NCBI GenBank assembly: GCA_965207375.1
Contig: OZ242274.1
Coordinates: forward strand, 2,016,001 to 2,080,000
Source of the DNA: Nitrosopumilaceae archaeon
Lineage (GTDB): Archaea; Thermoproteota; Nitrososphaeria; Nitrososphaerales; Nitrosopumilaceae
Reading direction: 5' to 3'
Length of the DNA stretch: 64,000 nucleotides
Part shown: positions 2,731-56,206 of the stretch, one piece after another
Numbering within the stretch: position 1 is the stretch's first letter
How the letters are laid out: the number at the start of each line of letters is the position of its first letter
Position numbers and translations under genes: made by a program
Notes under the pieces: generated by a model
Told to the model about the DNA's origin: nothing
The model's input: only the letters and a program-made list of their open reading frames with translations
Databases searched by the model: none

Positions 2731-3005
2731 AAAGATACGGCAGGTCTGACTAAATCGATAACAGATTGTATAATCAAAGACATACGAGACAAAATCGAGG
2801 ATAGATTAAAACCCAAGATTTTATTAAATTAACAAAAGAGACCGTACAAAATCAGGTCGTAAATTTTTCAAGTATGAAATTGTCAGGTATGTTCAAAAAC
2901 TAGGCATAGAATCAGAGGCGGCCTGAGTATGTGCTTCGAACCAAACACCATCTCAGACGTTCTTGAGGTTATAGTATGTCATCTTGAAATAAAAAATGTG
3001 GCGGA

Positions 3006-3251
3006 TTAGCGCCTTTCAAGCTGGGACACGCGATCCTCTAACTCAATAATGCGTTCCTGCAAGGCGGTAATGTCTACACGGTACCTTGAGGAATCACAGT
3101 CAAAGCCGTTGTGACCGTGCGCACATTCCTCAGAATATCGGGGCGTAGATTGATTATCGCCCTCGTTTACATCTAACCCGCCGTATGCAGATATTGTGCC
3201 CATGGCAAATAGTGCAATAATGCCTGCAAGTACGGGGTATCTCTTATTCAT
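3006..3251 (-). CDS. Small secreted protein with C-terminal coiled coil
   Basis: Signal peptide (MNKRYPVLAGIIALFAMGTISAYG), Cys pair around HGH, heptad tail ITALQERIIELEDRVSQLE. Confidence 0.7.
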   Translation of the reverse strand: MNKRYPVLAGIIALFAMGTISAYGGLDVNEGDNQSTPRYSEECAHGHNGFDCDSSRYRVDITALQERIIELEDRVSQLERR

Positions 3252-3355
3252 GTCATAGATAGAATTTAGTATTATTTATTATTTCTTATATTATGGAAAT
3301 AATAGACTATTTCTAAAATAATACGATTTATAACACATAATGACAAAGATGTACA

Positions 3356-3967
3356 GTGAACACGTTAGACAAAGTTGTAGCCAAGGGAGTCATGATGGTA
3401 CTAGAGGAGGATCTCGGCAGTGTTACATACAAAAAAATCGAAAAAGAGATACAGGACATGTATGGCATGTCGGTTCTAGAGGCAGTAGGTGACTTTGCAA
3501 AACTCGACCTGGTAATGAGAAAGTTTTTTGGAAGATACGCATCAAACATAGAATCTAAAATATTCAAAAAAGTTCTAACAGTAGACAAGAACACAAAAAA
3601 CAGATCTACAATCACCATCAGGAATCCCATAGTAGCAAAGTCAGTATTTGAGGCATATGGCGATCCTGCAAAAAAGGTGATTCTTGACATGCTGCTTGAT
3701 GAATCAAAATCAATACCAGATACCATAACAGAATCCGGACTTGCAAAGGCATCTACATATAATCGAATCAAGGAATTGATTAAGGACGGTCTGATCACAA
3801 TGAATGGATTTGCAAATGCAAGTGACGGAAGAAAGGTAAATCAATATACTGCCACCTTCAACAAGACGATATTCAACATAGATCAAAAATCAATTTCAGT
3901 TAATGCCACCATAGAATCAAAATTTCTAAGGGACAGTTACGTATACAACTCGATTCATACGGTGTAA
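3356..3967 (+). CDS. Winged-helix (ArsR-like) transcriptional regulator, thaumarchaeal type
   Basis: YGDPAKKVILD...SIPDTITESGLAKASTYNRIKELIKDGL HTH, DGRKV wing. Confidence 0.8.
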   Translation: MNTLDKVVAKGVMMVLEEDLGSVTYKKIEKEIQDMYGMSVLEAVGDFAKLDLVMRKFFGRYASNIESKIFKKVLTVDKNTKNRSTITIRNPIVAKSVFEAYGDPAKKVILDMLLDESKSIPDTITESGLAKASTYNRIKELIKDGLITMNGFANASDGRKVNQYTATFNKTIFNIDQKSISVNATIESKFLRDSYVYNSIHTV

Positions 3968-28461: not shown

Positions 28462-31400
28462 CTAGGAAAGTGGAACGTATGTAATTTTATAATAGAATCT
28501 TGATGGCTGTTGATCTTTTATAATTGAGACCGCAAATGGCTCTAGAGGCAGGCTGCCATCATTTGCAGCAGGCAAAATTGCAAATTTTTCAAATACGACA
28601 TCAGGACCGCTGTAACGAACCTTATAGTCAGCTTGACCAAAAGACACTACCGAATAGATGGCATCAGAAGAACGTGTAGAATTAGATATCAGACAATCAT
28701 CGGACTGACCTATAACACAGACACCATCAGTGGACGTTATTTGCAAGTTGACCTGAGATTCTGCTCCCCTAACAGTCAAAAGAGAGCCAGAAAATGCTCT
28801 CGGAGTTAACGGGTGGCCCTCTGAAAATTTTGGTTCAGGAGCTATCAAAATGTTAGATTCTACAATACGGCTTACCTTGTCAGTAATTCTGCTTGGAGCA
28901 GGTGGGTCCTCAACTAGAAATGTAATTGATACGGTGTCAAATCCGGCATCAACTGTTATCTCATAAGAACCAAGACTGTTTGATTCTGGAATTTTATAAT
29001 CAAAGGTAAAGCTGACGGTAGGATCAGGTTGAATGGAGGTAACAGGGCCTGCGTGCTGACCGCAATAAAATGCACCACATGTGATAGAGTTTTCAGACTG
29101 TTTGATTATACTGACATCAAATGTCTCAACATAGACAATCTTGCTAGGCTGCCCATGAAGTTTTAGGGTATCTCCTGGATAGTATTTTTCTTTGTCAAGG
29201 GTCAAAATTAGTTCCAAGTCAGCACCTGTGCCAAGGACAAATCCGCTAGATACTCCAAACTGAGCGTTAGCAGTCTCACCAGAATAAGACGCCCTAACAT
29301 TGTATGTGCCCTCTAGGAAAACAGATATTGGCAGCTCAAATGAGCTTGTGTAAAAGCCACCATTATCAGGAAATACATTTGCCTCATAGATTACACCATA
29401 GGGGGAAACACCAGATAATACTTTGATGTTTACCAAATCCGGAATTAAACCTGCAGAGCTTTGAGATTTTTCCAAAACATTGCCTCGTACAATTAACGTA
29501 TCACCTAACTGATACAGAGAACGATCTGTAAAAACCGCAAGTGGAGATACATCAAGTGAGTAATTTTGAGGATCTTTTGATATCTTGAAAAATACATTTG
29601 CGTTATTTCCTCCAATTTCTACATTTAGCCGATATACTCCAATGTTGCTTTTGGAGACGGCCCTGTCGTTTTCTGATCCAGAAGAGGTTTCAGATATTGG
29701 AGTGTCCCAACTCCAAGAGAAAAACCCACCATCAATTGTGGTGCCGAATTTATCAGTGTCACCATCTGGCTTGTAAAGCGTAAGGGATACTGCTTGACTG
29801 TCGCTAGTCTGTGCGCCGAATTTTCCAAACAGGTTCAAGGTTTCTCCGAATCCGTAGATTTCCTTATCTATAGACACAATAATTTCAGAGCTTCCCAAGT
29901 TGATTGGATCAGTTACAATAAAAACAGTAGTGTCTTGCAAATTGCCATACTTTGCATGTATCGCATATGCACCTTCAGGGAAAAGTGAGCGTATGGCCTC
30001 AGCATCTACCATAAAGTTGCCAGCAGGATCAGGAATTGCAGTAAATCTTAGATCAACTGGGGCGCCTGCGCGAGTATTTTCATCAGCCGAGGTGCCTGCA
30101 GAAGCCAAAGAGTTGCCAGCAGTGTTTGTAATTGTGATCTCAACTGGTACAGTTACAAAGGTGCTTGCAATTATCTGATTCCGAATAGAACCGCTGATAC
30201 GTACAACCTCACCTATTTCATAGACTGCCTTGTCAGTAACTACAAAAAATGGATCCGTTGGAGAAACAAAGTTTGAAGAATCCTCAACTATGGCAAATTT
30301 TGTGCTAAAGGTGCCTATTTTGCCACTAACAGTCACCCTGTACTCTCCAAAGCTTTCAAAGTTTTCAGGAATGGCAATTTCATGACTAAATGTACTGTCA
30401 CCTTCAAGTTTTACATTGTCTAGTATTTTCAGACCCGTTCCGCCGCTAGTACTCAAAGCAAGATTTGAGGATTTTAAAATTTCAAGTGAAAGGTAAGGGA
30501 CCCAGTGATCATTTGAGCGTCCAGAAATCACAATTATCTCTCCAGGCTCATATGCTGGCTTGTCAGTTTTTAGAGAAACAGGAGTGTTTTCCTTGACGTC
30601 TGCTGTTACATCAAATGTGTGTTGGGCAGTTTGAGTAGAGTATTGTCCCAGTATGCGATATTGCCCATATGCAGGAGAGGTCGTATCTACAAACAGATCA
30701 GTCATAAAAAATACACGTCCAGAGGAATTGCCAAATTCTTTTGGTATGGTTACATCGGAGCTTGGAAACAAGGTGCCCTGTGCAATTTTGTCACCTGCCG
30801 AATCCTCTACGGTAAACTTTAGACCCTCAAAAGGAACCTCTTGCGTAGTAGATGCATAGATTGTAACTGTATCACCTGGCATGTATGAGATTTCATCAGT
30901 AGTAATGTGTAAAGTATGACTTTGTTTTTTAGTAGCTTCAACTATTTGGTGGCCTACTGAAAACTGCACAGTATCGGCCGTATCGCCATACTGAGCTGTA
31001 ACATTATAGATTCCCTCGCTTATACCAAGTACATTTTGCAATCCAATGCTTGTTGAGAATTCAAGATCCAGATTTGGATACAGTGTTATTATATCAGAAT
31101 AGTTTGGTCCAGAGATTGTAATTATGATTTGAACAGGTGCAAAGGTTGGTTTTTCAACAAATAATGCCTCAGATACATTACCATACAAAACAGCAGACTC
31201 TCCAAATACGTATTGTGATTTGTCTGAATTAATTGATACTGAAACTTTTGTAGATTCAGACTGGGTTTCTAGCTTTCCGTTTGTAGAACCTGGAGAAGAG
31301 GTTTCAAATGTCCAGTCAGAATCACTGTCGCTGCCTACTGCGTCATAGATGCGCTGCCATGAGGAAAAGTCATTGTCACTGTCTGTCACAGATGGAGTCT

Positions 31401-31761
31401 TATCGACCAAAGTGCCGTTTGAATTCCAAAGTTGTACAGAATCAGAAATATCAGTAAACCATATTGGCCTATAAGAAAATGTTAAAAATTGCTCTGATTT
31501 TATTTCGGTTCCTGCCGGAATAACAAGCGTCTTTGTTAAAACTGTTGGAACAATCTCCCATCCTCCAATATCAACGGTTTCAGATGTGGGATTGTAGAGT
31601 TCAATCCATTCAGAGATTGTTTTAGAGTCATCGCCTGGAGGATTGGTCTCAATTTCATTAATTACAACATGATTGGCAACTGATGCAGTCTGGGCATATG
31701 CATGGCTGCCGCTAAAAAGCACTAGCGAGAGGGCCAATAATAGCATGATTTGGATTTTCAT
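28462..31761 (-). CDS. Exported lamin-tail-domain protein with multiple Ig-like repeats
   Basis: VVINEIETNP.G.D...EWIELYNP; repeated TDK..Y..G(D/E) units. Confidence 0.88.
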   Translation of the reverse strand: MKIQIMLLLALSLVLFSGSHAYAQTASVANHVVINEIETNPPGDDSKTISEWIELYNPTSETVDIGGWEIVPTVLTKTLVIPAGTEIKSEQFLTFSYRPIWFTDISDSVQLWNSNGTLVDKTPSVTDSDNDFSSWQRIYDAVGSDSDSDWTFETSSPGSTNGKLETQSESTKVSVSINSDKSQYVFGESAVLYGNVSEALFVEKPTFAPVQIIITISGPNYSDIITLYPNLDLEFSTSIGLQNVLGISEGIYNVTAQYGDTADTVQFSVGHQIVEATKKQSHTLHITTDEISYMPGDTVTIYASTTQEVPFEGLKFTVEDSAGDKIAQGTLFPSSDVTIPKEFGNSSGRVFFMTDLFVDTTSPAYGQYRILGQYSTQTAQHTFDVTADVKENTPVSLKTDKPAYEPGEIIVISGRSNDHWVPYLSLEILKSSNLALSTSGGTGLKILDNVKLEGDSTFSHEIAIPENFESFGEYRVTVSGKIGTFSTKFAIVEDSSNFVSPTDPFFVVTDKAVYEIGEVVRISGSIRNQIIASTFVTVPVEITITNTAGNSLASAGTSADENTRAGAPVDLRFTAIPDPAGNFMVDAEAIRSLFPEGAYAIHAKYGNLQDTTVFIVTDPINLGSSEIIVSIDKEIYGFGETLNLFGKFGAQTSDSQAVSLTLYKPDGDTDKFGTTIDGGFFSWSWDTPISETSSGSENDRAVSKSNIGVYRLNVEIGGNNANVFFKISKDPQNYSLDVSPLAVFTDRSLYQLGDTLIVRGNVLEKSQSSAGLIPDLVNIKVLSGVSPYGVIYEANVFPDNGGFYTSSFELPISVFLEGTYNVRASYSGETANAQFGVSSGFVLGTGADLELILTLDKEKYYPGDTLKLHGQPSKIVYVETFDVSIIKQSENSITCGAFYCGQHAGPVTSIQPDPTVSFTFDYKIPESNSLGSYEITVDAGFDTVSITFLVEDPPAPSRITDKVSRIVESNILIAPEPKFSEGHPLTPRAFSGSLLTVRGAESQVNLQITSTDGVCVIGQSDDCLISNSTRSSDAIYSVVSFGQADYKVRYSGPDVVFEKFAILPAANDGSLPLEPFAVSIIKDQQPSRFYYKITYVPLS

Positions 31762-41229: not shown

Positions 41230-42027
41230 TCATGCCTGTATCGTCACATCTTTGGTTGTGCTTTTCTCGGCTTGCTTTTTGGCAGCCTTTATCTTGTCCT
41301 TGATTTTCTTTTTGGCCAGTATCTGTTCTTTGTTCTTTGTATAGTATTCTTTTGAGCGCTTGTCAGCCTTTTCCTTGTTCTTTTGGTAATGTTCTTTTGC
41401 TCGTTCTATAGCCTTTTCCTTGTTTTTTTGATAGTATTGCTTTGCATGCTTGGTAATCTTTTCCTTGTTTTTTTGATAGTATTTTTTTCTATGCTCTTTT
41501 ACTCTCTCCTTGTTTTCTTTATTATAGGCCAGCGATTTCTTTACGAGTTTTTCCTTGTTTTTTTCATAGTATTTTTTGCCTTGTTCTCTAGATTTCTCCC
41601 TGAGTTCCTGGGATCTTGTCTTGTGTTTTGCCCTTGCACGGGCTAGTAACTTTTCTTTATTCTTGTGATAGTATTCTTTGCTTTTCTCTTTAATTTTGTC
41701 CTTGCTTGCCTGGTACCTTGCCTTTTCTGTAGCCAGTATCTTTTCTCTGTTCTTTTGATAGTATTCTGCATGCTTTGCCAGTAACTCTGTTTTGTTTGTT
41801 TGGTATTTTTTCTTCTTTTCTGCTAGTACCTTTTCCTTGTTGAGTTCGTATTTCTCCTTATGATACGCCTTGATTTTTTCTTTGTTCTTTTGGTAGTATT
41901 TGGCAGTATACTGATTTTCTCGTTCTCTAAGTTCGTTGTGGCGCTTTTTGCGGTTCTCCTTGATTTTCTCCTTGTTATTCTCATAATAGTCTCGGTGTGA
42001 TTCTGTGTAGGTCGACATGTATCTCAT
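41230..42027 (-). CDS. Lys/Tyr-rich 15-residue repeat protein (about 15 repeats)
   Basis: YYQKNKEK(I/L) recurring every ~15 aa; ATGA overlap with the upstream paralog. Confidence 0.88.
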   Translation of the reverse strand: MRYMSTYTESHRDYYENNKEKIKENRKKRHNELRERENQYTAKYYQKNKEKIKAYHKEKYELNKEKVLAEKKKKYQTNKTELLAKHAEYYQKNREKILATEKARYQASKDKIKEKSKEYYHKNKEKLLARARAKHKTRSQELREKSREQGKKYYEKNKEKLVKKSLAYNKENKERVKEHRKKYYQKNKEKITKHAKQYYQKNKEKAIERAKEHYQKNKEKADKRSKEYYTKNKEQILAKKKIKDKIKAAKKQAEKSTTKDVTIQA

Positions 42028-42464
42028 CTCGATTTTTTGGCCTGTACCGGCTTGGCTCTCTTGGCAGGCTTTTTCTTGCTTCTGGCTGCGTTTTTCTTGC
42101 TTAATTCGTACTTTTTCTTCTTATCTGCCAGTATCTTTTCTCTGTTTAATCGATAACGTTTTTTGATTTTGGCTAGTAACTTTTCTTTATTTTTTTGATA
42201 ATAGTCCTTTTTTTGCTCTAAGACCTTCTTTCTGTTCTGTACATTGTACTGTTTGTTATATTCCTTGAATCGCTCCTTGTCTGATTCGTATAGTTCTTTG
42301 TGATTTGCCTTGATTTGCTCTTTGTTTTTTTGATAATAATTGGCGCTGACTTGATTTTCCTGCTCTTTATTTGCTGTATAATGCTTTTTGCGATTTTTCT
42401 TTATTTTCTCTTTATTTTTCTGATAATATTCTTGATGTTGTTTTGTGTATGTAGATAGTTGCAA
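42024..42464 (-). CDS. Lys/Tyr-rich 15-residue repeat protein (about 7 repeats)
   Basis: Same motif; N-terminus STYT..H..YY..NKEKIK.NRKK shared with the downstream paralog. Confidence 0.85.
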   Translation of the reverse strand: MQLSTYTKQHQEYYQKNKEKIKKNRKKHYTANKEQENQVSANYYQKNKEQIKANHKELYESDKERFKEYNKQYNVQNRKKVLEQKKDYYQKNKEKLLAKIKKRYRLNREKILADKKKKYELSKKNAARSKKKPAKRAKPVQAKKSR

Positions 42465-42506: not shown

Positions 42507-45500
42507 CTAGTTGACAGTTATTGTGAGTTCGTTTGGTGGTGATAGTGCAGTTGGATTATCTACAGATTCCCAAACAAATGCAGTTGCAGTATATGTTCCT
42601 GCTTCTGATGGGGTCCATGATAATGCTGGACTAAACGACTGTGAAGGCGTCAATGTTCCTGAAACCCATGCAAGGGCTACAGTCACACTGCCCTCATTCT
42701 GAATCTGTACGATGTATGCAAATGGCTGATCTTTATCCTGACCGTTTGACAAGTCGGCTGTAATCTGCACCTGTTGATCCACTGTTAGAGTATCTAGCGT
42801 ATTGCTAAATGTATCAACTACTCTCAAGTTTGTAGCTGGTGCTCGTTCGAGTGGAGGTATGATTGAGCCAATCAGTGTTGTGGCAGTAATATCGATTTCA
42901 TCTGATGTATCGTGTGGATCAGGTAGTGTACGGTCGTTATATTCAGCAGTGACAGTGTCGCCTTCTGAAACTCTCAGTCTGTGACCGGAGGACGTATCAG
43001 ATACGGTAAAGAATGCCGTTCCTTCAAAGATTCCGGTTGCCTGATTTGTCTCAGTTACAGTCAAGTCAATACCGCCGACATCTGAATCAGACCAGACGTT
43101 AACCTCAAAGTTATCGACTGATTCTGGATTCAAATTCATATCTGGGTCTACTACCCTGACTACACCTGTACCGCTAGCTGCATAGCTTGCTTCAAGCCAT
43201 TGAACCTCACCGATATTCCATCTGACTAGTGCTGATCCTACTACCGTTTCATCCTCTGAAAATTCAAAGGATACGGAGAGACCATCATCGTCCTCAGTTG
43301 CTAGGAAACCATCAGTTGGGCCGCTGCCTTCAGTTTTAGGTGTAACATCGTTTATGCTGTCGCCGTCTACGTCATGTGCAAATCCAGTTAAGATTACCTC
43401 ACCAGTAAAGATTCCAGTGTCGGTGCCGGTTTCAACTAATTTGTAGTTGTCAATGTCAGCACCTCTTGTTGCAATCCTTATTGGGTCGTCATTCGTATTA
43501 CCTATTTCATCTACCAATTTATCATCGAAGTTGTGATCAGGTGCTACAATAGTAATGTAGACCTTATCAGTCCAAGTGTAAACCTTTTGGTCTAGCTCCA
43601 CTGTACTGCCAAAGTTTGATGTGAAAACTGTAAGATTAATATCTTCATCTTCATCACCAACGTGGTCAGAACCAGATGGGCCCCAATCGGTATACTCTAG
43701 TTCGATTTCTTCGCCTCGTTCGAGTTTATCGCCATCAAGTTCTTCAGGCATTTCGACTACAACCTGGAAGATTCCAGTGGAGTCGCCTGTTTCTCTAAAG
43801 GCGTTTGGTTCTGGATCAAATGCGTTTGGATCTGTTCCAAATTTACCCATACTCGTTGTTCCTGCATCTGAATCCCATTCCACTAGATCAAGTGGGTATG
43901 TTTCAGCTCCATCATTGTCAAGGTCAAGATCTGGCTCGATTAGAGTCAAGATCATGTCACTTCCAATAATGTAGACTGATTTATCAGATTGCAGTACGGC
44001 GTTTCTTAGGTCAAATGTAGCTGAATCGGTAACTGAGTTTGGTTCACCAGATGCGTCAGTTGGATCTGTGTATTGTACAGTAATAATGTCGCCCTGTAGA
44101 ACACATCCATCTTTGAACATGTTGTTTTGAGGGGTTGGATATTCTGGACAACCATCTTTAGGTCCATCTTTGTAGCTGATTGGAATATCTGCTTCAAAGA
44201 TTCCAGCGTCAGGTGCAATTTCTAGGATTGGTCCATACTCATTTGCAGTAGCATTTGCAGTTGCTGCGCCTGCTGTTGCAACGACTTTATCATTGTTTTG
44301 TCCTCTTGACACGGTCACCTTTATAGGTCCTGTTGTACCACTTGCAATTTTATCTTCACCAGAGGCTGATATGTCATAGTCAGAATCAGAGACTCTGACG
44401 TGGATTATTGTCTTGCCTTCTGATAGATACTTTGCATTAGGATTAGTTAGTTCTGCTTCTTTGAATGCCTCACCATCTTCATTTATTGATGGATGAAGTG
44501 GGAATACATTACCTGCGAATGGAACTGGATAAACTGTTCTGTCAAAGGTTACAGAGCCTGTACTGGCTCGTATGCCTGCAGAATCGCCTACCTCAATTTC
44601 TTCACCTGAAGCATCTCTAAAGTCCTGATAGTTTACCTCAATGTCAAGTCCTGTAGGTGATTTTGGATCTGTGGGTTTACCATCGATCTCGACACATTGC
44701 ATTTCAGGAATCTGGAACGTTGCCATGAATACTCCACTGGCTTTTTCTGTTTCTCTCAGAGTGCCAACGTTGCCTGCAAGTCCTTTATACTTAGGATCAG
44801 CGCATGCGACCCACTTTTTGTCATCAAATGTTACATCAAGTAACAATGAGCCATCAATGAGTGTGCCGTTGCCAATATCTCTTCCAAAAACATCGCCTAC
44901 AGTGGTGTAAATATCGATTACATCACTGTCAGTGTTCAAGTCAGCATCAGTCAATTTGATAGTAACTGTGTCAGCTACTTTGTAGTTATCACCATCAAAT
45001 TCTACGACGGCCGAGTGTGTTGGTGCTGTCTGTTGATCAGATGTTTGAGTTTGGACACCTTGATCGTCATGATCATAGTAAATCATTTCTACTGCATCTT
45101 CATCCGTCAAATCCTCATGAACTATAATGTCTAGTTCATCAGAAATTGTGGCAAGACCAGTAAAGGTGTCTTCATCAAATCGGTTGATCTGGTTTAGCAT
45201 TACATACTCTACTGTACCTTCGTATACGCCTGTATCGGTGTTTGTTTCTTCTGGTTCGAATCTGTATATGGCATCATTGTATCTGCCATTTTCATCTTGG
45301 CCGAATTTGAACAGATCCAATACAATTGGGTATGTATCAGCTTCTATAGCTTTTTGGAAGTTTAGCTGTAGTGATACTTTACCGCTTGCATTTAGGAATT
45401 GTTCAAGTGGAGTTAGATCTGATTGTGTTGTTTGTTGTACCTGAACTGTTTGTCCAAAGATTTCACCAAATGAGTTGATTGCACAGTCAATACATGATAC

Positions 45501-48500
45501 TGTCTGTGGGTTGCTCAATATGGTTGAACTGGAAGGTGATACTCCTGGAATTGGACAGTTAGTAGCGTCAGTAGTTACTTTTTCTGGTGCTTGGAAAGTG
45601 ATTCCATGGGTACTGCCACTAGTGGCATCAACTTCAAAGACATCATATACCATGCATGCTAGGTCACCATCGGCGTTTAGCTTTGTATTGTATATCAAAG
45701 CGTCATCGCTGTATTCCTCTGCAATGAAAGGAATCATGGTTGCTAATTGTGCAGCTGTGTGATCCTTTCCAAGAGCATCTATTGCTCTGGCTAGAATCTG
45801 ACCTGCATCGTATGCAGAGTATGCATGTCTGTCAAAGATATTACCATCACTGTCAACAGTTACTGTTGCGGATGCTTGTAGATCGTTCTTCAATGCAGTG
45901 TGGTTTGCATTAATATCATTTAGTGCAAACTTTATCGTCTTTAGATTTGTCTCGATTAACAATTGTTGTTGTGGGTCACCTTGTAGTATATTCTCGAATG
46001 TGTCTGCTGTTCCATCTGGAATGTCAGGAATAATTAATTGCGTTGTATTGATGCCAGTGTAGACAAAGTGTCCTGTCTGGTTTTGTTCAGATAGTTGTCG
46101 AGTTAGTACGTCAAGACTATGATTGGTAAACTCTAGTAAGATAATTGCTGTTTGTGCATCAAGATGAGCACCACTTGGCAATAAACCAGTACTAGGATGT
46201 TTTAGAGTAGCATTGATAGTGTCTTGTGCTGAACTAAAGTCTGTATCTGCGACTGAACCGTCATAAGAGATAGTTCTATGATTAGCACCATATTCGTCCT
46301 CTAATGCATCAGCGTATGAATTACTCCAAGCATCATCACGTTGTATGGATATGATTTGATCAAACTCGCTTCCTGGAATTACTTCTTCATTCAGTATTTT
46401 ATTTACCTGACGTTGTGTATCAACAGTTAGTCTGAAAATACCGTCATTTGGATTGGCAAATTCTGCTGATGTTGAAGCATAGCTTAACATGACAATGTCT
46501 CCATCGTCTGTACCGATCTTGCCGGTGTCGTCAAGCGTCTTCAACTGTTCTGAAGTGTAAGTACCTACTGCTCCTTTAACATCTGTATTTAGTACAGACT
46601 GTATATCCTGTGTAGGAGTTGCGGTTAGGGGTAGTTTTGTCGGATTAATGGTTTGAGATGTTTCTTTGTAGGCTGGATCGTCATAATCGTCTACAGCTTT
46701 GTCAAATGCTGCTCCAAAGTGTTCCATTTCGTAAGCACTGTCACGATCGTGTAACAATGGAATTGTGACAGTTGTGTCAAAGTCTGAACCTCTAGTAGGT
46801 CGTACATCTGCTGCTGCATTTACTGTTATAGTAACTTGTGCAGTTGATCTTTCACCGCCATCGTCCATTGCAGTAAAGGTAAAGACTTTATCACCTATAT
46901 CGGCTGTAACAGGAGTCCATGTAAAGACGCCTGTTGTAGGATTAACTGTAGGATTATTTGTTACCTGTGCAGTTGCAGTGAGTCTGATTGTGTTTCGAGT
47001 GTCAGCTGGATTAGCGTCAGTTACATCAACAGTGAATGTCACTGCTTGATCTACCGTTGCTTGTGTCACAGCATTGCTTGTATCAATTACTGGAGCAACG
47101 TTTGGTACGTTAGGATCTGGCGTTTGACCATTTGTTGCTGCACTTACTGTTATAGTAACTTGTGCAGTTGATCTTTCACCGCCATCGTCCATTGCAGTAA
47201 AGGTAAAGACTTTATCACCTATATCGGCTGTAACAGGAGTCCATGTAAAGACGCCTGTTGTAGGATTAACTGTAGGATTATTTGTTACCTGTGCAGTTGC
47301 AGTGAGTCTGATTGTGTTTCGAGTGTCAGCTGGATTAGCGTCAGTTACATCAACAGTGAATGTCACTGCTTGATCTACCGTTGCTTGTGTCACAGCGTTG
47401 CTTGTATCAATTACTGGAGCAACGTTTGGTACGTTAGGATCGACTGGTGCTGCATCTACTGTTATAACAATAGATACTGGATCAGATCGTGTATTTTCAT
47501 CGTCAATTGCTACAAAGGTGAAGGTATTACGTCCTATATCAGCTGCAACTGGAGTCCATGTAAAGTTACCTGCTGCGGTTAATGTAGCAGTAGCTGTTTG
47601 TCCTTGTGGTTGAGTCATTTCGAAAGTCAAACTTTCAGGACTGTCGCCTGGGTTATCATCTGTTCCTTCAACCATGAAGGTCAATCGTTCGCCTACTGTT
47701 GCTGTTGTTGTTACGCTAGTTGCTGTAAATGATGGAGCTACGTTAACAATTGGTACTGGACGTACGTCTATGGTGACAACTTCTGTATCGGTGCCTCCGT
47801 TACCGTCATCTACTGTAAACTGTATGTTTGCAGTACCTACGGATGTTGGAGTAAATACAAAGACATTATCATTGTTTGCTGATACTGTTTCTGTATTGTT
47901 TGCGCTGTAAGTAAGACTGTCATTGTTGTCGTCAGTTGCTACAACAGTTAGTGTCAAAGGTTGATTTTCTACTACTTCTCTTGGACCATTTACTGATGAT
48001 ATGACTGGGACTGCGTTAGATGGAACAACTGGAGTTGTTGTTATAGGACAGTTAGTAGCGTCAGTGGTTGCTTGTTTTGGAGCTGAAAGTTCAAATCCTG
48101 TTTTGACGTCATCAATTTCAAATATGTCATATACCATACATTCAAGATCACCAGTGGTGGAATCAAGAACGGTTCTGTATATCAAAGCATCAGAGCTGTA
48201 AGCTTTTGCTGCTGTTGGTATAGCTGCGGCTAAATCAGCAGATGTATAATCCGTTCCAAGACCGTTTATGGCTCGTGTTAGGATTTGACCTGCGTCGTAT
48301 GCGGCATATGCATGTCTGTCAAAGATGTTACCATCACTGTCAAAGTTGACCTCTGTCAATATGGCCTGGTCTAGAACATCATTCAATCTTTCTTGATCTG
48401 CATTGTTACCACTTAGTGCAAACTTTATCGTCTGCATATCTGTGTCTTGTAGCAATGCAAGAGCAGCATCGGTTAGAGAGCCAAAGGCTGCACTTGGAAC

Positions 48501-50798
48501 ATCAGGAATGATGAATTTTGTGGTTTCAATTCCTGCATAAGCATTAGAATTACCGTCCTTTCTAGCAAGTTCTTCTATCAGTGCATCAAGTCTATCATGA
48601 TTATATTCAAGAATCACGATTGCTGTTGTTACATTACCTGACAAACCAGTTAATACGCTGCTAAACTCTACTGTTATGTCTTTTGCGTCAGTATTGTATG
48701 CAATAGTTCTATGATTGTCACCGTATGTTGCCTCTAATGCTGCAACATAGTCCTTACTCCATGCATCGTTTAGATGTATGGAGATGACATTATCAAAGTC
48801 AGCAATTGGAATCAATTCAGTTATTATACTTTCCACCTGACGAGATGTATCTGTAGTCAATCTAAAGATACCATCGCCTGGTTCTGCAAATGATTGTGCT
48901 GCTGAAGAGTAACTTAACAAGACAATTTGTCCATCATCTGTACCGATCTTGCCGGTGTTGTTAAGAATCCTCAACTGTTCAGAGGTATAAGTACCGACTG
49001 CTCCTTTAGCGCCTGCATCTAGTACAGCCTGTATAGGATTAATTCCTAAATCTCGCTTTAGTGAGCTAAATGTTTTGGAATCGACCTCATAGTCTGAAAC
49101 TGCTTTATCAAATGCTGTTCCAAAGTGTTGTGATTCATAAGCACTACCAGAGTTGTATAGTAATGGAATTGCTATTGTCTCTTTGTTATCACAACTTTGT
49201 CTATCGTGTTCTAACAATATTGAATCCTGTCCAGATGCGTCACTTGCGATACAGAATGTATCGCCGTTGACAACAAGGGATATGTCTGCTTTTTCATTTA
49301 ATGAACGCAGATCATAGTTTATCAAGTTAAAGACCTCAGTATTGTCGCCCACAAATGCTCCTAACTCATCAGCTGTAATATCAAGTGGAATTTCCAACGA
49401 TAATTCGTCTCCATCAGTGGTAAGGATTCCCCTATCACTGAAATCTTGACTCGTCAAGTTGTAATTGGGTTGATCACTATTGTCATAATTACCCAATGTG
49501 ATTGGTTCGCCTATCTGTATTGTAGGAATTGCTGCGTCTGGATTCTTGTGTACTTCATAATCGTTGTCTGACTTTGTGTTTTTGTTAAAGTCAGCGTCTT
49601 CGATCATGACAGTTATAGATTCACCTGAGTTCCAAACCCCTTCAATTGATGTTGGAAGGAATGTTACAGAACCGCCGGTATAATCGACAGCATAGTTTGT
49701 TGTGTCATCGTTATAATCGACTATAAAGTCGAGTCCACGAATATCTGCGTTGTCTGTTGTCTTCAAGTTTGAGTTGTCAGCTGTATTGGTATTATCAAAC
49801 ATTCCAGAGTTTGGTTCGCTCTCTTGGAAAGTTATGATGTTTTTGTCTGTAAAGTGTGCAAGATTACTATCTTGCTCATCGTTATCCACAAACACCAATA
49901 ATGATTCATCAGTGTTTGGCATTGGATCGATTATCAAAAATCCGTTATCACCAAAGTTGGCTTTACCAAGATCTTCTTTAATATCCTTTACCAGAAATTT
50001 TGTGTTTAGGTCTCCAGATGTCTCAAAGGCATAATAGTATGTCTCTGTGTTGTCTGCATCATCTGCCGTTACAAATGTCCAAGTATCTTCGTCAGTAGGA
50101 TCTATGTTTAGTTGATTGTCGTTGATTGTAATGTGTACATCTGCACCGTGCGGATATGTCTGTCTATCAAGCTCATAGCTTGGAAAGTCATCCATATCCT
50201 CGGTGTATACTACATTAATTGTCTGAGCGGGTGATGTTCCATAGACAACTTTGAGTGTTGAGTCATCTGCAAAGTCGTTAAATGTCTGGATGAACGGCCA
50301 CGTGTTTTTTGGCAGGTTAATTTGACCAAGAGTAATTGAATCTCTGGCGGCGGTGGGTTCTTTGTGGTTTCGAACCAACTCATCGACACCACAGAAGAGT
50401 GTGTCTGCATCAGAAAAGTCATCAAGATCATCAGTACATGTTGTACCTATTCCCAATGCTTTTGTAAATACATCAAGCTCATCTGTAGATGCGACATACG
50501 CGTACCATTTACCGTCATTAGCCTGTGTCATTCTCAAATCGTTGCCATCAAAGGTAACGTCTGGTTCTGCTTCGACTTCATCAGTTTCACCATAATTGGA
50601 ATCGTTGACTATAATCTCTACTATCATTGGGCCACCAAAGGTTGTGGTTGAAACGTATAGGTTTGCATTGGTAGAACTTTGTGCCATAGCATCTGGTGTT
50701 ACACCAGGTATAGCGAAAGTCATACCACCAGCAACCATGATTGCCATTAAACTAAGACTAGTTAGTTTTTTTTGTATGTTTTTATTATGTCGTAACAT
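42507..50798 (-). CDS. S-layer protein (Nitrosopumilus type) with inserted PBP-like and Ig/cadherin-like domains
   Basis: Signal KLTSLSLMAIMVAGGMTFAIPG; repeated ETG..TGIF / DPD.N units; C-terminal PLERAP...QQVQITADL...FAYIVQIQ...AFVWESVDNPTALSPP. Confidence 0.9.
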   Translation of the reverse strand: MLRHNKNIQKKLTSLSLMAIMVAGGMTFAIPGVTPDAMAQSSTNANLYVSTTTFGGPMIVEIIVNDSNYGETDEVEAEPDVTFDGNDLRMTQANDGKWYAYVASTDELDVFTKALGIGTTCTDDLDDFSDADTLFCGVDELVRNHKEPTAARDSITLGQINLPKNTWPFIQTFNDFADDSTLKVVYGTSPAQTINVVYTEDMDDFPSYELDRQTYPHGADVHITINDNQLNIDPTDEDTWTFVTADDADNTETYYYAFETSGDLNTKFLVKDIKEDLGKANFGDNGFLIIDPMPNTDESLLVFVDNDEQDSNLAHFTDKNIITFQESEPNSGMFDNTNTADNSNLKTTDNADIRGLDFIVDYNDDTTNYAVDYTGGSVTFLPTSIEGVWNSGESITVMIEDADFNKNTKSDNDYEVHKNPDAAIPTIQIGEPITLGNYDNSDQPNYNLTSQDFSDRGILTTDGDELSLEIPLDITADELGAFVGDNTEVFNLINYDLRSLNEKADISLVVNGDTFCIASDASGQDSILLEHDRQSCDNKETIAIPLLYNSGSAYESQHFGTAFDKAVSDYEVDSKTFSSLKRDLGINPIQAVLDAGAKGAVGTYTSEQLRILNNTGKIGTDDGQIVLLSYSSAAQSFAEPGDGIFRLTTDTSRQVESIITELIPIADFDNVISIHLNDAWSKDYVAALEATYGDNHRTIAYNTDAKDITVEFSSVLTGLSGNVTTAIVILEYNHDRLDALIEELARKDGNSNAYAGIETTKFIIPDVPSAAFGSLTDAALALLQDTDMQTIKFALSGNNADQERLNDVLDQAILTEVNFDSDGNIFDRHAYAAYDAGQILTRAINGLGTDYTSADLAAAIPTAAKAYSSDALIYRTVLDSTTGDLECMVYDIFEIDDVKTGFELSAPKQATTDATNCPITTTPVVPSNAVPVISSVNGPREVVENQPLTLTVVATDDNNDSLTYSANNTETVSANNDNVFVFTPTSVGTANIQFTVDDGNGGTDTEVVTIDVRPVPIVNVAPSFTATSVTTTATVGERLTFMVEGTDDNPGDSPESLTFEMTQPQGQTATATLTAAGNFTWTPVAADIGRNTFTFVAIDDENTRSDPVSIVITVDAAPVDPNVPNVAPVIDTSNAVTQATVDQAVTFTVDVTDANPADTRNTIRLTATAQVTNNPTVNPTTGVFTWTPVTADIGDKVFTFTAMDDGGERSTAQVTITVSAATNGQTPDPNVPNVAPVIDTSNAVTQATVDQAVTFTVDVTDANPADTRNTIRLTATAQVTNNPTVNPTTGVFTWTPVTADIGDKVFTFTAMDDGGERSTAQVTITVNAAADVRPTRGSDFDTTVTIPLLHDRDSAYEMEHFGAAFDKAVDDYDDPAYKETSQTINPTKLPLTATPTQDIQSVLNTDVKGAVGTYTSEQLKTLDDTGKIGTDDGDIVMLSYASTSAEFANPNDGIFRLTVDTQRQVNKILNEEVIPGSEFDQIISIQRDDAWSNSYADALEDEYGANHRTISYDGSVADTDFSSAQDTINATLKHPSTGLLPSGAHLDAQTAIILLEFTNHSLDVLTRQLSEQNQTGHFVYTGINTTQLIIPDIPDGTADTFENILQGDPQQQLLIETNLKTIKFALNDINANHTALKNDLQASATVTVDSDGNIFDRHAYSAYDAGQILARAIDALGKDHTAAQLATMIPFIAEEYSDDALIYNTKLNADGDLACMVYDVFEVDATSGSTHGITFQAPEKVTTDATNCPIPGVSPSSSTILSNPQTVSCIDCAINSFGEIFGQTVQVQQTTQSDLTPLEQFLNASGKVSLQLNFQKAIEADTYPIVLDLFKFGQDENGRYNDAIYRFEPEETNTDTGVYEGTVEYVMLNQINRFDEDTFTGLATISDELDIIVHEDLTDEDAVEMIYYDHDDQGVQTQTSDQQTAPTHSAVVEFDGDNYKVADTVTIKLTDADLNTDSDVIDIYTTVGDVFGRDIGNGTLIDGSLLLDVTFDDKKWVACADPKYKGLAGNVGTLRETEKASGVFMATFQIPEMQCVEIDGKPTDPKSPTGLDIEVNYQDFRDASGEEIEVGDSAGIRASTGSVTFDRTVYPVPFAGNVFPLHPSINEDGEAFKEAELTNPNAKYLSEGKTIIHVRVSDSDYDISASGEDKIASGTTGPIKVTVSRGQNNDKVVATAGAATANATANEYGPILEIAPDAGIFEADIPISYKDGPKDGCPEYPTPQNNMFKDGCVLQGDIITVQYTDPTDASGEPNSVTDSATFDLRNAVLQSDKSVYIIGSDMILTLIEPDLDLDNDGAETYPLDLVEWDSDAGTTSMGKFGTDPNAFDPEPNAFRETGDSTGIFQVVVEMPEELDGDKLERGEEIELEYTDWGPSGSDHVGDEDEDINLTVFTSNFGSTVELDQKVYTWTDKVYITIVAPDHNFDDKLVDEIGNTNDDPIRIATRGADIDNYKLVETGTDTGIFTGEVILTGFAHDVDGDSINDVTPKTEGSGPTDGFLATEDDDGLSVSFEFSEDETVVGSALVRWNIGEVQWLEASYAASGTGVVRVVDPDMNLNPESVDNFEVNVWSDSDVGGIDLTVTETNQATGIFEGTAFFTVSDTSSGHRLRVSEGDTVTAEYNDRTLPDPHDTSDEIDITATTLIGSIIPPLERAPATNLRVVDTFSNTLDTLTVDQQVQITADLSNGQDKDQPFAYIVQIQNEGSVTVALAWVSGTLTPSQSFSPALSWTPSEAGTYTATAFVWESVDNPTALSPPNELTITVN
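46820..47441 (-). repeat. Near-identical tandem duplication of an Ig/cadherin-like domain (324-bp period)
   Basis: 46820-47117 vs 47144-47441; one synonymous difference noticed. Confidence 0.93.
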
Positions 50799-51276
50799 GT
50801 TATTGGTTTTTTTCCATAAACTACAGAATTACATCTAGTTTTGACTTGATTCACGCACGATAAAATTTGATAGCGCCTGGCATTCGTAAAGGCCTATGAG
50901 TAGAAATGCCAAAATCAGAATTTTCATGCCTGATTCAGGCACATCAAAAGATGGATCATTCGTCCATTTGTCTTATATAGTTAGTTTATGGAAAGAAACT
51001 AATAATTTTTAACAAGTTTTACAGCTACAAACCAATCATTTTTGATTCAATTACATACCCAGTCAGAACAGTACAAAAAAATCAACACTCCAGAGACCAT
51101 GACGCAGGAATCATACAGTCAATTACAAAAATAGTCATGTTTTGACTGTCCTAAATAAATACAAAAGATCAAAATAAGTGTCATATATGACATGTACTTG
51201 TCCACATTACACCTAATTTTTCAATTATCATATCACACCATTTGAGTACAAATCAACTCGATTACGTTAACAAGTG

Positions 51277-53937: not shown

Positions 53938-54402
53938 TTGAAGGCCAAGAGTCAAGACAGATTAGAATCAATCAAGGCAGCTCACAAATCAGCAAAATCT
54001 GCATCAAGTTCAAGGATGGAAGATTACCTAGAGGTCATAGCAGAGCTAGTAGAAATGAAAGGGTATGCTACCACGCTTGACATATCAAGATACATGGACG
54101 TCAGTGCACCAAGCGTAACAAAAATGCTGCAACGTCTAGATGATAACGGATATCTAGAATATGAAAAGTATCATGGCATAAATTTAACAGATGCAGGTGC
54201 ACAAATTGCAGACACAATAAGACAAAAGCACGGGATTCTTTTGGATTTTTTTGAGATTTTAGGGGTTGGAAGTGAGACGGCAAACCAAGATGCAGAAGGA
54301 ATCGAACACCATCTAAATCCAAAAACAATCAGACAGTTGCGTAAATTTATTACATTTTTAAAAGCAAACCCAAAAATTTTGGACAGTTTTAAAAATCTTT
54401 AA
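53938..54402 (+). CDS. DtxR/MntR family metal-dependent regulator
   Basis: MEDYLEVI, VSAPSVTKML, YEKY.GI.LT, DAEGIEHH; start TTG 53938 is more plausible than 53674. Confidence 0.9.
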   Translation: MKAKSQDRLESIKAAHKSAKSASSSRMEDYLEVIAELVEMKGYATTLDISRYMDVSAPSVTKMLQRLDDNGYLEYEKYHGINLTDAGAQIADTIRQKHGILLDFFEILGVGSETANQDAEGIEHHLNPKTIRQLRKFITFLKANPKILDSFKNL

Positions 54403-56206
54403 CACGTATCTGAATTTCATTTTTTGACGATGCCAAATCCAGTAATTTATGAGCATCAGAGGAGCGCTTTGGAATTTTGATTTGGCCCTTGCGTCCAATG
54501 CGTGAGGATATGACAAACTCGTCATTTACATACAAGTCGGCTTTTTGACCCATATGTTTTCTATCAACGGTAAATACAATAGAGGATTTTGATTCAGAAT
54601 AGTCAAAGGGCAGCTCAAAATTGGAGGCAGGTTTTGATTCATCACGCTTTGTTACATCAATGTGTAAGTTGAGTTTCTTTTCAAGATCAGCTATGTTGGA
54701 GCCACCCCGGCCGATTATGCTTGGAATAACATGTGGTGCGACTTTGATTTGCACGCGGGATTCAGATAAAATCTCAATTTGAGCATCAGCATCATATCTG
54801 GAAATAATGTCGCGAATTTTGTCCTCTGCTAGTTTTTTAATTCCTAAACTAGTCTGTTTGTCAGAGACAGGAATTATTACGTTTTCCTCTCCAAAGGTAT
54901 AGATTTCGTATTCTGGTTTGTCATCTTCAAAATTACTAATTACAATTACGGGTCTTGCCAAATCCTGTTCTGTCATGCCAGAGGGAACCTTGACTTTGAG
55001 TTCCAAATCATATACCTTTGAGATCTTGCCCTTAGATACATAGACTACAGTATCTAAGACACTTGGAATCATGCCCAACTCAATCTTTCCAATAAACCTC
55101 TGAATTGCATCAATTGGTGAATTTGCATGTACTATTCCTACCATTCCGACTCCGGCAAGCCTTAGATCAGAGTATACCTCAAAATCATTGCGTCGCCTGA
55201 CCTCATCAAATATGGTATAATCAGGACGTACTAGCAGCAATATGTCAGCAGAATTTTCAAAGCTTCCATCAAGTTTTGTGTACTGGGTAATACCAGAGTC
55301 TACCTGCAAATCCCGAGGCGATTCAAAGGTTTTAACAATTTTGTTTTGAGCATGATAAAAATTTGCCAAACCCGATGCAAGGGTGGATTTTCCAGAACCG
55401 GGAGCACCAGATATCAAAATCCCTTCAGCACCGTCAGCAAATCGCTTCATTAGTTTTTCAGAAACAGAATAATCATAAAGTGATAGCTTTACAATTGGAT
55501 GTACTATTGTAATTTCAAGGCTTTCTGAAAAGGGAGGCTTTGTAATTGCTATACGAAAGTCACCGTGTTGAATAACCATTGCACCAAGTTTTGAAATTTC
55601 AATACCTGTAGAATCTACAGATTTGACATATTCTTCAATCTCATTTGCAATCTCTTGCAGATAATCACGGGTCAGTATGGCATTATCAATTTGTACAAGT
55701 TCAAAGGAACTAGGAGTTCCACGCTTTGCCATCGGAGGCAGATTTTCCTTCAGATGTACACTCATGGTAGTATCATCAAAAAATTTTAAAAATTTCAAAT
55801 TTTCTGCAGATATTTTTGGATAATAATATTGGATGTCTACATTTTCAGCGCGAGCCGCCATGGATTGTGCACGATCAGAGGTAAACAAAGTTGCGTTGTT
55901 TTGTTTTGCCACATCCTTTATGATGGCATCAATTCTGCCATTTCCTGCCAATCTAATATCGTCAAATGAAGGGTGTTCACCTTCAAAATGGATGGCAATT
56001 TTTGCAGCTGTAGATAATTTTTGCAGTTGAGATATTGCATCTAGGCCCGCAAAGCCCTGTTCCTTTTTTTGTGATGCCTGAGACTGTAATTCATCTAAAA
56101 CTGCAACAGGTATTATGATTTTAGAGTCATCAAGCAGTCCATCATTTATCAATCTTATAATTTCACCATTGACTAAAATGCTAGTATCAAGTACTATTGT
56201 ACGCAT
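54389..56206 (-). CDS. PIN-domain ATPase with KH domain (PINA/HelA-type)
   Basis: IVLDTS PIN, GAPGSGKST, ESPRDL, FDEVR, IIGRGG KH. Confidence 0.92.
   Translation of the reverse strand: MRTIVLDTSILVNGEIIRLINDGLLDDSKIIIPVAVLDELQSQASQKKEQGFAGLDAISQLQKLSTAAKIAIHFEGEHPSFDDIRLAGNGRIDAIIKDVAKQNNATLFTSDRAQSMAARAENVDIQYYYPKISAENLKFLKFFDDTTMSVHLKENLPPMAKRGTPSSFELVQIDNAILTRDYLQEIANEIEEYVKSVDSTGIEISKLGAMVIQHGDFRIAITKPPFSESLEITIVHPIVKLSLYDYSVSEKLMKRFADGAEGILISGAPGSGKSTLASGLANFYHAQNKIVKTFESPRDLQVDSGITQYTKLDGSFENSADILLLVRPDYTIFDEVRRRNDFEVYSDLRLAGVGMVGIVHANSPIDAIQRFIGKIELGMIPSVLDTVVYVSKGKISKVYDLELKVKVPSGMTEQDLARPVIVISNFEDDKPEYEIYTFGEENVIIPVSDKQTSLGIKKLAEDKIRDIISRYDADAQIEILSESRVQIKVAPHVIPSIIGRGGSNIADLEKKLNLHIDVTKRDESKPASNFELPFDYSESKSSIVFTVDRKHMGQKADLYVNDEFVISSRIGRKGQIKIPKRSSDAHKLLDLASSKNEIQIRVKDF

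Follow-up and report, generated by a model that had tools for sequence, protein, structure and literature searches.

The surface layer (S-layer) of marine ammonia-oxidising archaea has recently been shown to work as an ammonium-concentrating charged sieve, built of immunoglobulin (Ig)-like domains only. Here we analyse a gene for an S-layer protein (SLP) of another build, located in a 64,000-nucleotide stretch of the genome of a Nitrosopumilaceae archaeon (GenBank assembly GCA_965207375.1, contig OZ242274.1, positions 2,016,001 to 2,080,000; hereafter the window, whose own numbering we use). Its product carries, between the N- and C-terminal parts of an S-layer protein, a large cassette in which two domains of the type I periplasmic-binding-protein (PBP) fold bracket four Ig-like domains. 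Coats that are phase-varied by DNA inversion are known from the sap S-layer genes of Campylobacter fetus, from CwpV of Clostridioides difficile and from the invertible promoters of Bacteroides; the promoter of the gene described here also lies between inverted repeats.

The closest described protein is the S-layer protein of Nitrosopumilus maritimus (NmSLP; Nmar_1547, PDB 8C8K). According to the text of the structural study, it consists of ten Ig-like domains, with the N-terminus at the outer face and domain 9 as the membrane-proximal base (PMC11153153). Domain 4 is described there as nested in domain 3, projecting outward and bearing N-glycans, and residues 35-455 and 466-1498 as refined separately (PMC11153153). 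The residue limits of domains 3 and 4 are absent from the searchable text of PMC11153153 and PMC12153357. Variable numbers of Ig-like domains are noted for S-layer proteins (PMC11153153), and expanded S-layer gene sets are reported for sponge-associated ammonia oxidisers (PMC6790972); PBP inserts go unmentioned in the searchable parts of both papers. Archaeal invertons are characterised as barely explored in a preprint (PMC10028968). Keyword searches of the open-access literature returned neither a PBP domain in an S-layer protein nor an invertible archaeal S-layer promoter, which is no proof of absence.

An S-layer protein interrupted by a cassette

The gene, which we call paralogue A, occupies positions 42507-50798 of the window on the minus strand and forms a single frame of 2763 codons plus stop without interruption, as read from the list of open reading frames (ORFs) and their translation. 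It belongs to a genome (G000) of 4.30 Mb in 4 contigs with an estimated completeness of 99.95%; an RNase P RNA of the archaeal type, together with a tRNA, marks the window as archaeal.

A phmmer search of the whole protein against all PDB chains returned one match, 8c8k_A (1734 aa, 'Cell surface protein'). The match fell into three stretches, pairing query residues 5-113 with chain residues 2-113, 117-449 with 173-525, and 1824-2762 with 717-1733; the two N-terminal stretches scored 92.6 and 103.5 bits and the C-terminal one 1159.7 bits. These three stretches establish that the N- and C-terminal S-layer parts are real. Judged by this alignment, the product retains the leader of the solved lattice protein, its N-terminal domains and its entire C-terminal Ig-like array, and residues ~450-1823 (about 1300-1370 residues) are without counterpart in the N. 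maritimus protein.

Reading from the N-terminus, all on the minus strand, the product comprises a predicted signal peptide or N-terminal leader (aa 1-39; 50682-50798), aligned to residues 2-~38 of 8c8k_A over the hydrophobic LTSL(S/T)LM.IMVAGG.TFAIPGV stretch, and the N-terminal scaffold (aa 40-450; 49449-50681), aligned to 8c8k_A residues 2-113 and 173-525. A 'pre' segment of variable scaffold follows before the cassette (aa 451-534; 49197-49448, with Cys516/Cys536), alignable to canonical SLPs of the same genus as far as aa ~510-526. The cassette itself consists of PBP1 (aa 535-925; 48024-49196), four Ig-like domains (aa 926-1334; 46797-48023) and PBP2 (aa 1335-1755; 45534-46796). A 'post' segment with an SCIDCA motif (aa 1756-1823; 45330-45533), kept in the five paralogues of this genome and in the database proteins P0002 and P0004, leads back to the C-terminal scaffold (aa 1824-2763; 42510-45329). 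The region of 45400-49200 singled out by the original prediction, which was made from the sequence alone, corresponds to aa ~533-1800 of the S-layer gene.

The whole product is acidic. Every segment had a net charge of between -6 and -18 per 100 residues; Asp plus Glu made up 12-23% as against 3-6% for Lys plus Arg in the six segments of at least 84 aa, and 9% as against 3% in the 68-aa 'post' segment. The cassette segments were somewhat less acidic than the scaffold segments.

The borders of the insertion were placed with BLAST and MAFFT, using as references the canonical SLPs of genomes G176 (1720 aa), G039 (1726 aa) and G061 (1657 aa). The scaffold could be traced to aa ~510-526 and resumed at aa ~1800-1824, points that are separated by just ~35-65 residues in the SLPs of the same genus. 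The resulting insertion amounts to ~1290 residues (about aa 511-1800), close to the ~1250 aa that had been predicted. Within the 'post' segment, the first ~40 residues are absent from canonical SLPs and the last ~20-25 align with them. Numbered as in NmSLP, the insertion site falls at about residues 547-717, where the family varies most, and is directly preceded by a conserved G(D/N/E)PFTL motif (~512-518). The C-terminal scaffold is 64-68% identical to canonical SLPs of other genera. With 2763 aa and a non-scaffold cassette of ~1300 aa, the protein is not an uninterrupted chain of about ten Ig-like domains and ~1.6-2.0 thousand residues; by homology, the gene is a member of the NmSLP family that departs from this Ig-only architecture.

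Because domain 4 of NmSLP projects outward and the insertion site belongs to this portion of the chain, the insertion is probably at or in domain 4 and the cassette probably displayed on the outer side of the lattice, as judged from the published description of the structure.

The two large domains are type I binding-protein folds

The original prediction had recognised two homologous domains with shared motifs and had likened them to type I periplasmic binding proteins of the LivJ/ANF-receptor kind. Both parts of this proposal held. PBP1 and PBP2 contain the quoted motifs in translation and share 208 identities over 413 columns (50%, E 8e-123). PBP2 matched ANF_receptor (PF01094) with 36.0 bits (cut-off 25.4, E 5.4e-9), and with 35.2 bits in a six-frame search of the genome.

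For PBP1, an exhaustive phmmer search over 1.84 billion representatives returned 55 proteins at E<=1e-3. All ten distant matches that were tested had both PF01094 and PF13458; by cluster, only one distant match had a name, P0019, 'ABC transporter substrate-binding protein'. We aligned nine lattice-embedded PBP domains (A1) and, separately, 17 free ~400-aa PBP1 matches (A2), of which 17 match PF01094 and 16 match PF13458. Comparison of A1 with A2 by hhalign gave a probability of 100% (E 1.3e-40, 345 columns). Six of the nine embedded domains matched PF01094 at E<=0.01. The nine-domain profile gave weak matches in the PDB (GLR3.4, E 0.0014; a homologue of the leucine/isoleucine/valine (LIV)-binding protein, E 0.11), and a word-index search with A1 found a single protein fragment, P0007. 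A further profile, A3, strongly matched LIV-binding proteins; since A3 includes free PBPs, this match was not counted as independent evidence.

The structure of PBP1, the domain covered by modelling, was predicted by AlphaFold2 from a 35-row alignment with a mean confidence (pLDDT) of 93.6 and a pTM of 0.93, showing alternating strands and helices; from the single sequence, the pLDDT was 32.7. A Foldseek search of the PDB with this model returned 809 matches at E<=0.001. At the top were the atrial natriuretic peptide (ANP) receptor, SAR11_0655, LivJ and GABA-B (E ~1e-12 for these four), LivK and the ligand-binding domains of metabotropic glutamate receptors (mGluR); the probability was 1.00 for LivJ, LivK, GABA-B, mGluR and the ANP receptor, with TM scores of 0.6-0.73 (best 0.70/0.73). 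Taken with the profile comparison and the Pfam match of PBP2, the model of PBP1 indicates that both ~400-aa domains are genuine type I PBP/ANF-receptor (Venus-flytrap) folds.

A set of core residues was found in all nine embedded domains, namely G68, S72, S95, S98, D108, R112, D144, W146, F/Y198, D232, Y300, D301, G349, D350 and Y356; Y167 was present in eight, with a Thr in the domain of genome G014. Most of these are also kept in nearly all of 26 free PBPs. S72, the S98/T99 loop, the aromatic residue at 198 and D232 were placed through a HMMER alignment to the E. coli leucine-binding protein; we take these to be the LivJ positions that hold the carboxylate and amine of the bound amino acid. 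The correspondence is offered as a lead to the ligand class, by analogy.

In a maximum-likelihood tree, the embedded domains formed one clade (support 100/99), with the single domain of G014 as its sister. The tree divides the embedded domains into a 'PBP1 type' and a 'PBP2 type', and the PBP2 of paralogue A falls in the PBP1-type clade, unlike the second domains of paralogues B, C and D. We also considered that the embedded domains were recent copies of the binding protein of the genome's own Liv-type ATP-binding cassette (ABC) system; this was ruled out by an identity of 26% and the separate clade.

The middle of the cassette had been predicted to consist of four Ig/cadherin-like domains, and Pfam bore this out. 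Residues 928-1327 matched He_PIG (PF05345; 57.7 bits, E 1.6e-15, three stretches) and Big_9 (PF17963; 48.5 bits, E 1.6e-12, four stretches) above cut-off, and Cadherin_5 (PF17892; 25.2 bits) just under its cut-off of 26.5. According to Tandem Repeats Finder, domains 3 and 4 form a 324-nt tandem duplication (window 46805-47441, 2.0 copies, 98% matches).

Tandem ANF_receptor/PBP domains also occur in large proteins of G000 that are not S-layer proteins (G000:C1:1728919-1735513 and 1757003-1758040), in the database proteins P0008 and P0009, and in frames of 2100-4055 aa in the large-genome relatives G061, G052 and G071.

Five paralogues and a mosaic gene

G000 holds five SLP homologues, with open frames of 2773, 2951, 2959, 2889 and 1668 aa. 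Four are giants with two PBP domains each, and each of the five bears the cassette or its scar; no full-length SLP free of the cassette turned up when this genome was searched with the N- and C-terminal scaffold. The filling of the cassette differs between the giants. Paralogue A has PBP1, four He_PIG/Big_9 domains and PBP2; B has one Ig-like domain, a PBP (654-1045), fn3/Big_9/He_PIG domains and a second PBP (1521-1885); C has fn3 and He_PIG-like domains, a PBP (978-1367), a short linker region and a divergent PBP (1525-1935); and D has a PBP (602-984), three fn3 and He_PIG domains and a PBP (1487-1860). In paralogue E (L020, G000:C1:1401242-1406248, 1663 aa), the first ~120 residues of PBP1 are fused to the segment that follows PBP2, and the last ~80 scaffold residues are missing, with no remnant downstream. 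E is therefore a natural deletion derivative and possibly a decaying copy, though its promoter is forward.

We calculated pairwise substitution ratios between the paralogues by the Nei-Gojobori method (NG86, own script), which is crude on recombining sequences. The ratio of nonsynonymous to synonymous substitutions (dN/dS) was 0.43-0.74 for the PBP1 domains, 0.24-0.30 for the C-terminal scaffold and 0.25-0.45 for the N-terminal scaffold. The synonymous distance (dS) of the PBP1 of A to those of C and D was 0.27-0.39, and that of its C-terminal scaffold to B, C and D 0.47-0.70. In contrast, the N-terminal scaffold of A, the most divergent of the five, had a saturated dS of ~2.2 and an identity of ~40% to its paralogues; it is 48.8% identical to the canonical SLP of G176, a member of another genus. 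Since dS is low in PBP1 and ~2.2 in the N-terminal scaffold, parts of the cassette have evidently been exchanged between paralogues, and by the same sequence comparisons paralogue A combines parts of two S-layer types in mosaic fashion.

The gene is followed directly by two ORFs, of 146 and 265 aa (window 41230-42464, minus strand). They consist of lysine-rich 'YYQKNKEK'-type repeats and have no Pfam match and no obvious signal peptide; ORFs of this kind, 53-85% identical, also stand behind paralogues B and D.

Promoter elements between inverted repeats

In SLP genes of other genomes, a conserved element with the consensus (C)GTCCATT(A/T)(A/G)(G/C)(C/G)TTA(A/T)ATA was found in forward orientation 35-58 nt before the ATG in seven of seven cases, with one or two departures per gene. 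By position and conservation it looks like a promoter with a transcription factor B recognition element (BRE) and a TATA box. The element is forward and proximal in paralogues C, D and E; in D it stands ~35-55 nt ahead of the ATG. Upstream of paralogue A, the proximal position lacks it, and a copy that matches the motif of D exactly, GTCCATTTGTCTTATATAG, stands on the opposite strand (window 50962-50980, plus strand), directed away from the gene. Allowing at most two mismatches, G000 has the element at the loci of A, B and D and, besides these, at a single unrelated position.

In paralogue A this region is bounded by two inverted repeats of 24 bp with 91.7% identity, a proximal one in the 5' untranslated region (UTR) just upstream of the ATG (IR-R, 50800-50823) and a distal one (IR-L, 50982-51005), which the inverted element adjoins. 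The repeats, 14-24 bp long across the three loci, lie at -207..-184 and -25..-2 in A, at -365..-352 and -26..-13 in B, and at -267..-246 and -26..-5 in D, where they are 95% identical; the bounded segments of B and D are at G000:C1 ~194620-194975 and ~1200287-1200553. Flipping the 158-bp interior of A (50824-50981) would almost restore the arrangement of D, ...GTCCATTTGTCTTATATAGTTAGTTTATGGAAA...ATG. The left flank of B is collinear with that of D (50 nt, 92%), and the interior of B is the reverse complement of that of D (148 nt at 86.5%, 50 nt at 94%). The element thus points toward the gene in D and away from it in A and B.

A search of the 2 kb upstream of paralogues C and E, and of the 470-920 nt upstream of the SLP genes of seven relatives, disclosed no partner of the 5' UTR in inverted orientation; upstream of the gene of G014, neither an inverted promoter nor an inverted 5' end was found. 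Two 14-nt matches with 2 mismatches upstream of relatives' SLP genes were judged to be due to chance.

Such an arrangement is what invertible promoters classically look like; it suggests that the promoters flanked by inverted repeats form an invertible switch, in which A and B would be OFF and D ON in the assembly. As its promoter is inverted, paralogue A is perhaps switched off in the assembled state, and the very high copy number in the lattice that the original prediction envisaged may not apply to it.

Distribution among relatives and integrity of the locus

We surveyed 201 genomes of the family, a set that includes the unpublished G077, G092 and G093, on which no single statement depends here. 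Homologues of the C-terminal scaffold were present in 196 and PBP1 matches in 49, the best match outside G000 being 31% identical and located in G014, a member of the same genus. The SLP of G014 has a single PBP at the same position, in a contig that ends inside the gene; G039 and G061, of the same genus, have canonical SLPs. Among the matches listed, SLP frames outside G000 measured 1400-2311 aa, mostly 1600-1800. Among GTDB species representatives, the clade-specific motif derived from A1 was found only in the G014 contig, which comes from an uncultured Nitrosopumilaceae metagenome-assembled genome (MAG). Searches of genome contigs with PBP1 disclosed no related locus, and the A1 motif had no match in JGI metagenome contigs.

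Three database proteins share the layout of the giants. P0002 (2958 aa) is complete and has the order N-terminal scaffold, PBP, Ig-like domains, PBP and C-terminal scaffold; P0003 and P0004 have the same layout and are cut by contig ends. Since they are 55-77% identical to the G000 paralogues, these proteins come from other organisms or assemblies. By these comparisons, the architecture with PBP and Ig-like domains is rare, not standard, among relatives.

The locus was also traced in public short-read runs, possibly those of the source sample. Parts of the window occur in seven runs from two studies, and more than 70% of its words in three of these, all from one study; no RNA run containing it was found, which is not taken as evidence on expression. 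All pieces are short-read contigs interrupted at paralogous repeats; not one extends over the whole gene or cleanly crosses a boundary between PBP and scaffold. In run X1, record 6 (window 49148-49457) extends from the 'pre' segment into PBP1 by 49 nt, and record 2 (window 44511-45464) reaches from the C-terminal scaffold into the 'post' segment, ending 70 nt short of PBP2. A joint that skips 3320 nt (45510 to 48831) fits the structure of paralogue E and not a variant of paralogue A.

In other genera, some of the longer SLPs bear inserts of other kinds near this site. The SLP of G111 (2141 aa) has an Ice_binding domain (PF11999) of ~210 aa just after the GxPFTL motif (E 2.5e-37) and a second one farther upstream (E 6.7e-35; L039:1316-2113 and 2996-3763 for the two), and the SLP of G017 (1922 aa) has one of ~210 aa just after GxPFTL (E 1.6e-31; L042:1926-2813). 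An insert of ~580 aa occupies the same place in the SLP of G119 (L038:4081-5883), and one of ~280 aa lies farther downstream in that of G022 (L040:3870-4772), both without Pfam match. The scaffold evidently accepts, and recruits, functional inserts.

A shorter S-layer-like paralogue of ~1060-1100 aa is common to genomes of the same genus (G014:C41, G061:C2:547777-550326, G080:C6); the query that disclosed it there did not find it in G000.

Proposed function and alternatives

We propose, with a probability of about 55%, that the gene serves to display functional receptors on the S-layer lattice, under the control of a promoter switch. When expressed, the scaffold parts would assemble into a lattice as in N. 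maritimus. The original prediction had pictured binding clamshells on an adhesin-like stalk; this topology has to be reversed. The PBPs are the ends of the cassette, at the scaffold, and the Ig-like array is the loop between them: because both ends of the cassette join the scaffold at a single site, the clamshells would sit side by side on the lattice surface, probably the outer one, with the Ig-like array looping away. By analogy with their free relatives, the clamshells may bind small solutes, most likely amino-acid-like ones, or other carboxylate or amine solutes, which would be concentrated locally at the cell surface for uptake, in parallel to the ammonium-concentrating role of the acidic lattice. 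Alternatively, the clamshells may recognise a surface. Only one or a few lattice variants would probably be expressed at a time, with paralogue A OFF in the assembled state.

Trapped solutes could feed the cell's own ABC system of the Liv type, which is equipped with a separate binding protein. Its operon (G000:C1:1998061-2002771), ~13 kb before the first base of the window, encodes two ATPases, two BPD_transp_2 permeases (C1:1999470-2001312; the only BPD_transp_2 genes in G000) and a PBP of 454 aa with an N-terminal hydrophobic anchor, 26% identical to PBP2. No ABC permease genes were found beside paralogue A.

Several observations weigh against the display of solute receptors. The Liv operon is ~57 kb from the S-layer gene, the embedded domains are just ~26% identical to its binding protein, and a binding protein fixed in a lattice cannot dock in the classical way to a membrane ABC permease. 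PBP1 by itself stays under the Pfam cut-off (PF13458, 18.7 bits as against 31.7), a phmmer search with it against PDB sequences gave 0 matches at E<=10, and its dN/dS is more in keeping with diversifying or relaxed selection than with a conserved nutrient receptor. The outward placement leans on a text description of the solved structure. As for the switch, opposite orientations were seen between paralogous loci (B versus D, A versus D) and not within one locus; the genome has one tyrosine recombinase match (PF00589; C1:307448-307906), far from these loci, and a search for serine recombinases (PF00239) gave no match in the 99.95%-complete G000. Finally, the orientation of the promoter suggests that the copy in paralogue A is silent.

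The strongest alternative is that the protein is a variable coat, in which exchangeable, fast-evolving PBP and Ig/fn3 modules would mediate adhesion to a matrix or host, or evasion of viruses whose receptor is the S-layer. The PBP fold would then be a module for protein or glycan recognition or for assembly, like the amino-terminal domains of ionotropic glutamate receptors, and phase variation would swap coats. The four giants differ in their stalk domains (He_PIG/Big_9 or fn3) and PBP subtypes, and the 324-nt domain duplication is recent. Furthermore, expanded S-layer sets of sponge-associated ammonia oxidisers have been proposed to serve adhesion or recognition (PMC6790972). The elevated dN/dS of PBP1 (0.43-0.74 as against 0.24-0.45 for the scaffold), the cassette shuffling indicated by the contrast in dS and the switchable promoters of differing orientation give this alternative real weight. 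On the other hand, residues shared with free PBPs are conserved in each of the nine embedded domains, a conservation that a mere spacer or decoy would not call for; neither virus, adhesion or host evidence nor a host-associated lifestyle was seen; and NG86 is crude on recombining paralogues. On balance we consider a variable coat possible, though not probable.

An equally tentative proposal, and one that we would sooner bet against than for, is that of a programmable coat, with several SLP genes offering different receptor modules and stalks, cassettes being shuffled between them, and flipping promoters choosing the coat.

We also considered that paralogue A is a silent or accessory copy, either a promoter-less reserve or a decaying gene, with the coat made from C, D or the short E. 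Its conserved promoter is directed away from it, among the five, its N-terminal scaffold diverges most (~40% identity to B-E), and paralogue E, with its internal deletion and truncated C-terminus, shows that decay occurs in the family. However, an intact frame of 2763 codons and a scaffold dN/dS of 0.24-0.30 against the paralogues are not expected of a dead gene, and the inverted repeats that would serve to flip the promoter back are 92% matched; we therefore hold this explanation to be unlikely. An assembly chimera, in which an S-layer gene was joined to unrelated PBP and adhesin genes, might be suspected in a repeat-rich region where the public short-read contigs are fragmented and none spans the gene, but it is highly improbable, and excluded as far as comparison can do so, by the recurrence of the layout at four loci of G000, in the G014 contig of the same genus and in the 55-77% identical proteins of other assemblies, besides the continuous frame and the exact short-read contigs that enter both flanks of the cassette.

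Other genes of the window

Elsewhere in the window, a gene on the minus strand (28462-31761) encodes a probable surface protein of 1099 aa with Lamin-tail (LTD) and MG2 (alpha-2-macroglobulin-like) domains, and another (54389-56206, minus strand) a protein of 605 aa with PIN, T2SSE-like ATPase and KH domains.

Comparison with known systems

If the display of receptors is correct, these modules, up to two per subunit, would extend the sieve idea from ions to organic solutes or to surface recognition. Because the insertion site tolerates 200-1300 residues, it would offer a natural model for presenting functional domains on an archaeal lattice. If the inversions are active, abundant nitrifiers would have a phase-variable coat, which bears on virus-host dynamics and on adaptation to particles or hosts. 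A programmable coat, if true, would include the first solute receptor embedded in a lattice and the first phase variation of an S-layer that we know of in archaea; with the ice-binding inserts of other genera, it would make the SLP of Nitrosopumilaceae a scaffold for display in general, having an insertion site reserved for this purpose.

Compared with NmSLP, paralogue A has a signal peptide, N-terminal domains, a complete C-terminal Ig-like array and acidity alike, and it shares the family-wide promoter motif. NmSLP lacks the ~1300 residues, with two PBPs and four Ig-like domains, found here between ~547 and 717, and the promoter of paralogue A is inverted. The NmSLP study speaks of two genes, 91% identical (PMC11153153), as compared with five paralogues in G000.

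With LivJ/LivK and the ANF-receptor modules, including those of class C G-protein-coupled receptors, the embedded domains share the two-lobed fold, profile homology and conserved residues of the family, among them the GxxxS-loop Ser and the S-x-x-S-T/A loop; we take these two loops to be the ones that hold the alpha-carboxylate and amine of the ligand in E. coli LivJ. Unlike LivJ/LivK, they are embedded twice in a lattice protein, neither free nor lipid-anchored, with no adjoining permease genes, and they change faster than the scaffold that carries them.

The SLPs of G111 and G017 (L039, L042) resemble paralogue A in having a foreign domain in the same variable stretch after G(D/N/E)PFTL; they differ in that their inserts are Ice_binding domains of ~210 aa and that the insertion point is ~100 residues earlier. 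Finally, the locus has in common with the sap, CwpV and Bacteroides systems alternative coat genes and a promoter bounded by inverted repeats, whose orientation differs between otherwise collinear loci. It differs from them in belonging to an archaeon, in having a separate repeat-flanked promoter at each of three paralogues and in that no adjacent recombinase was found.

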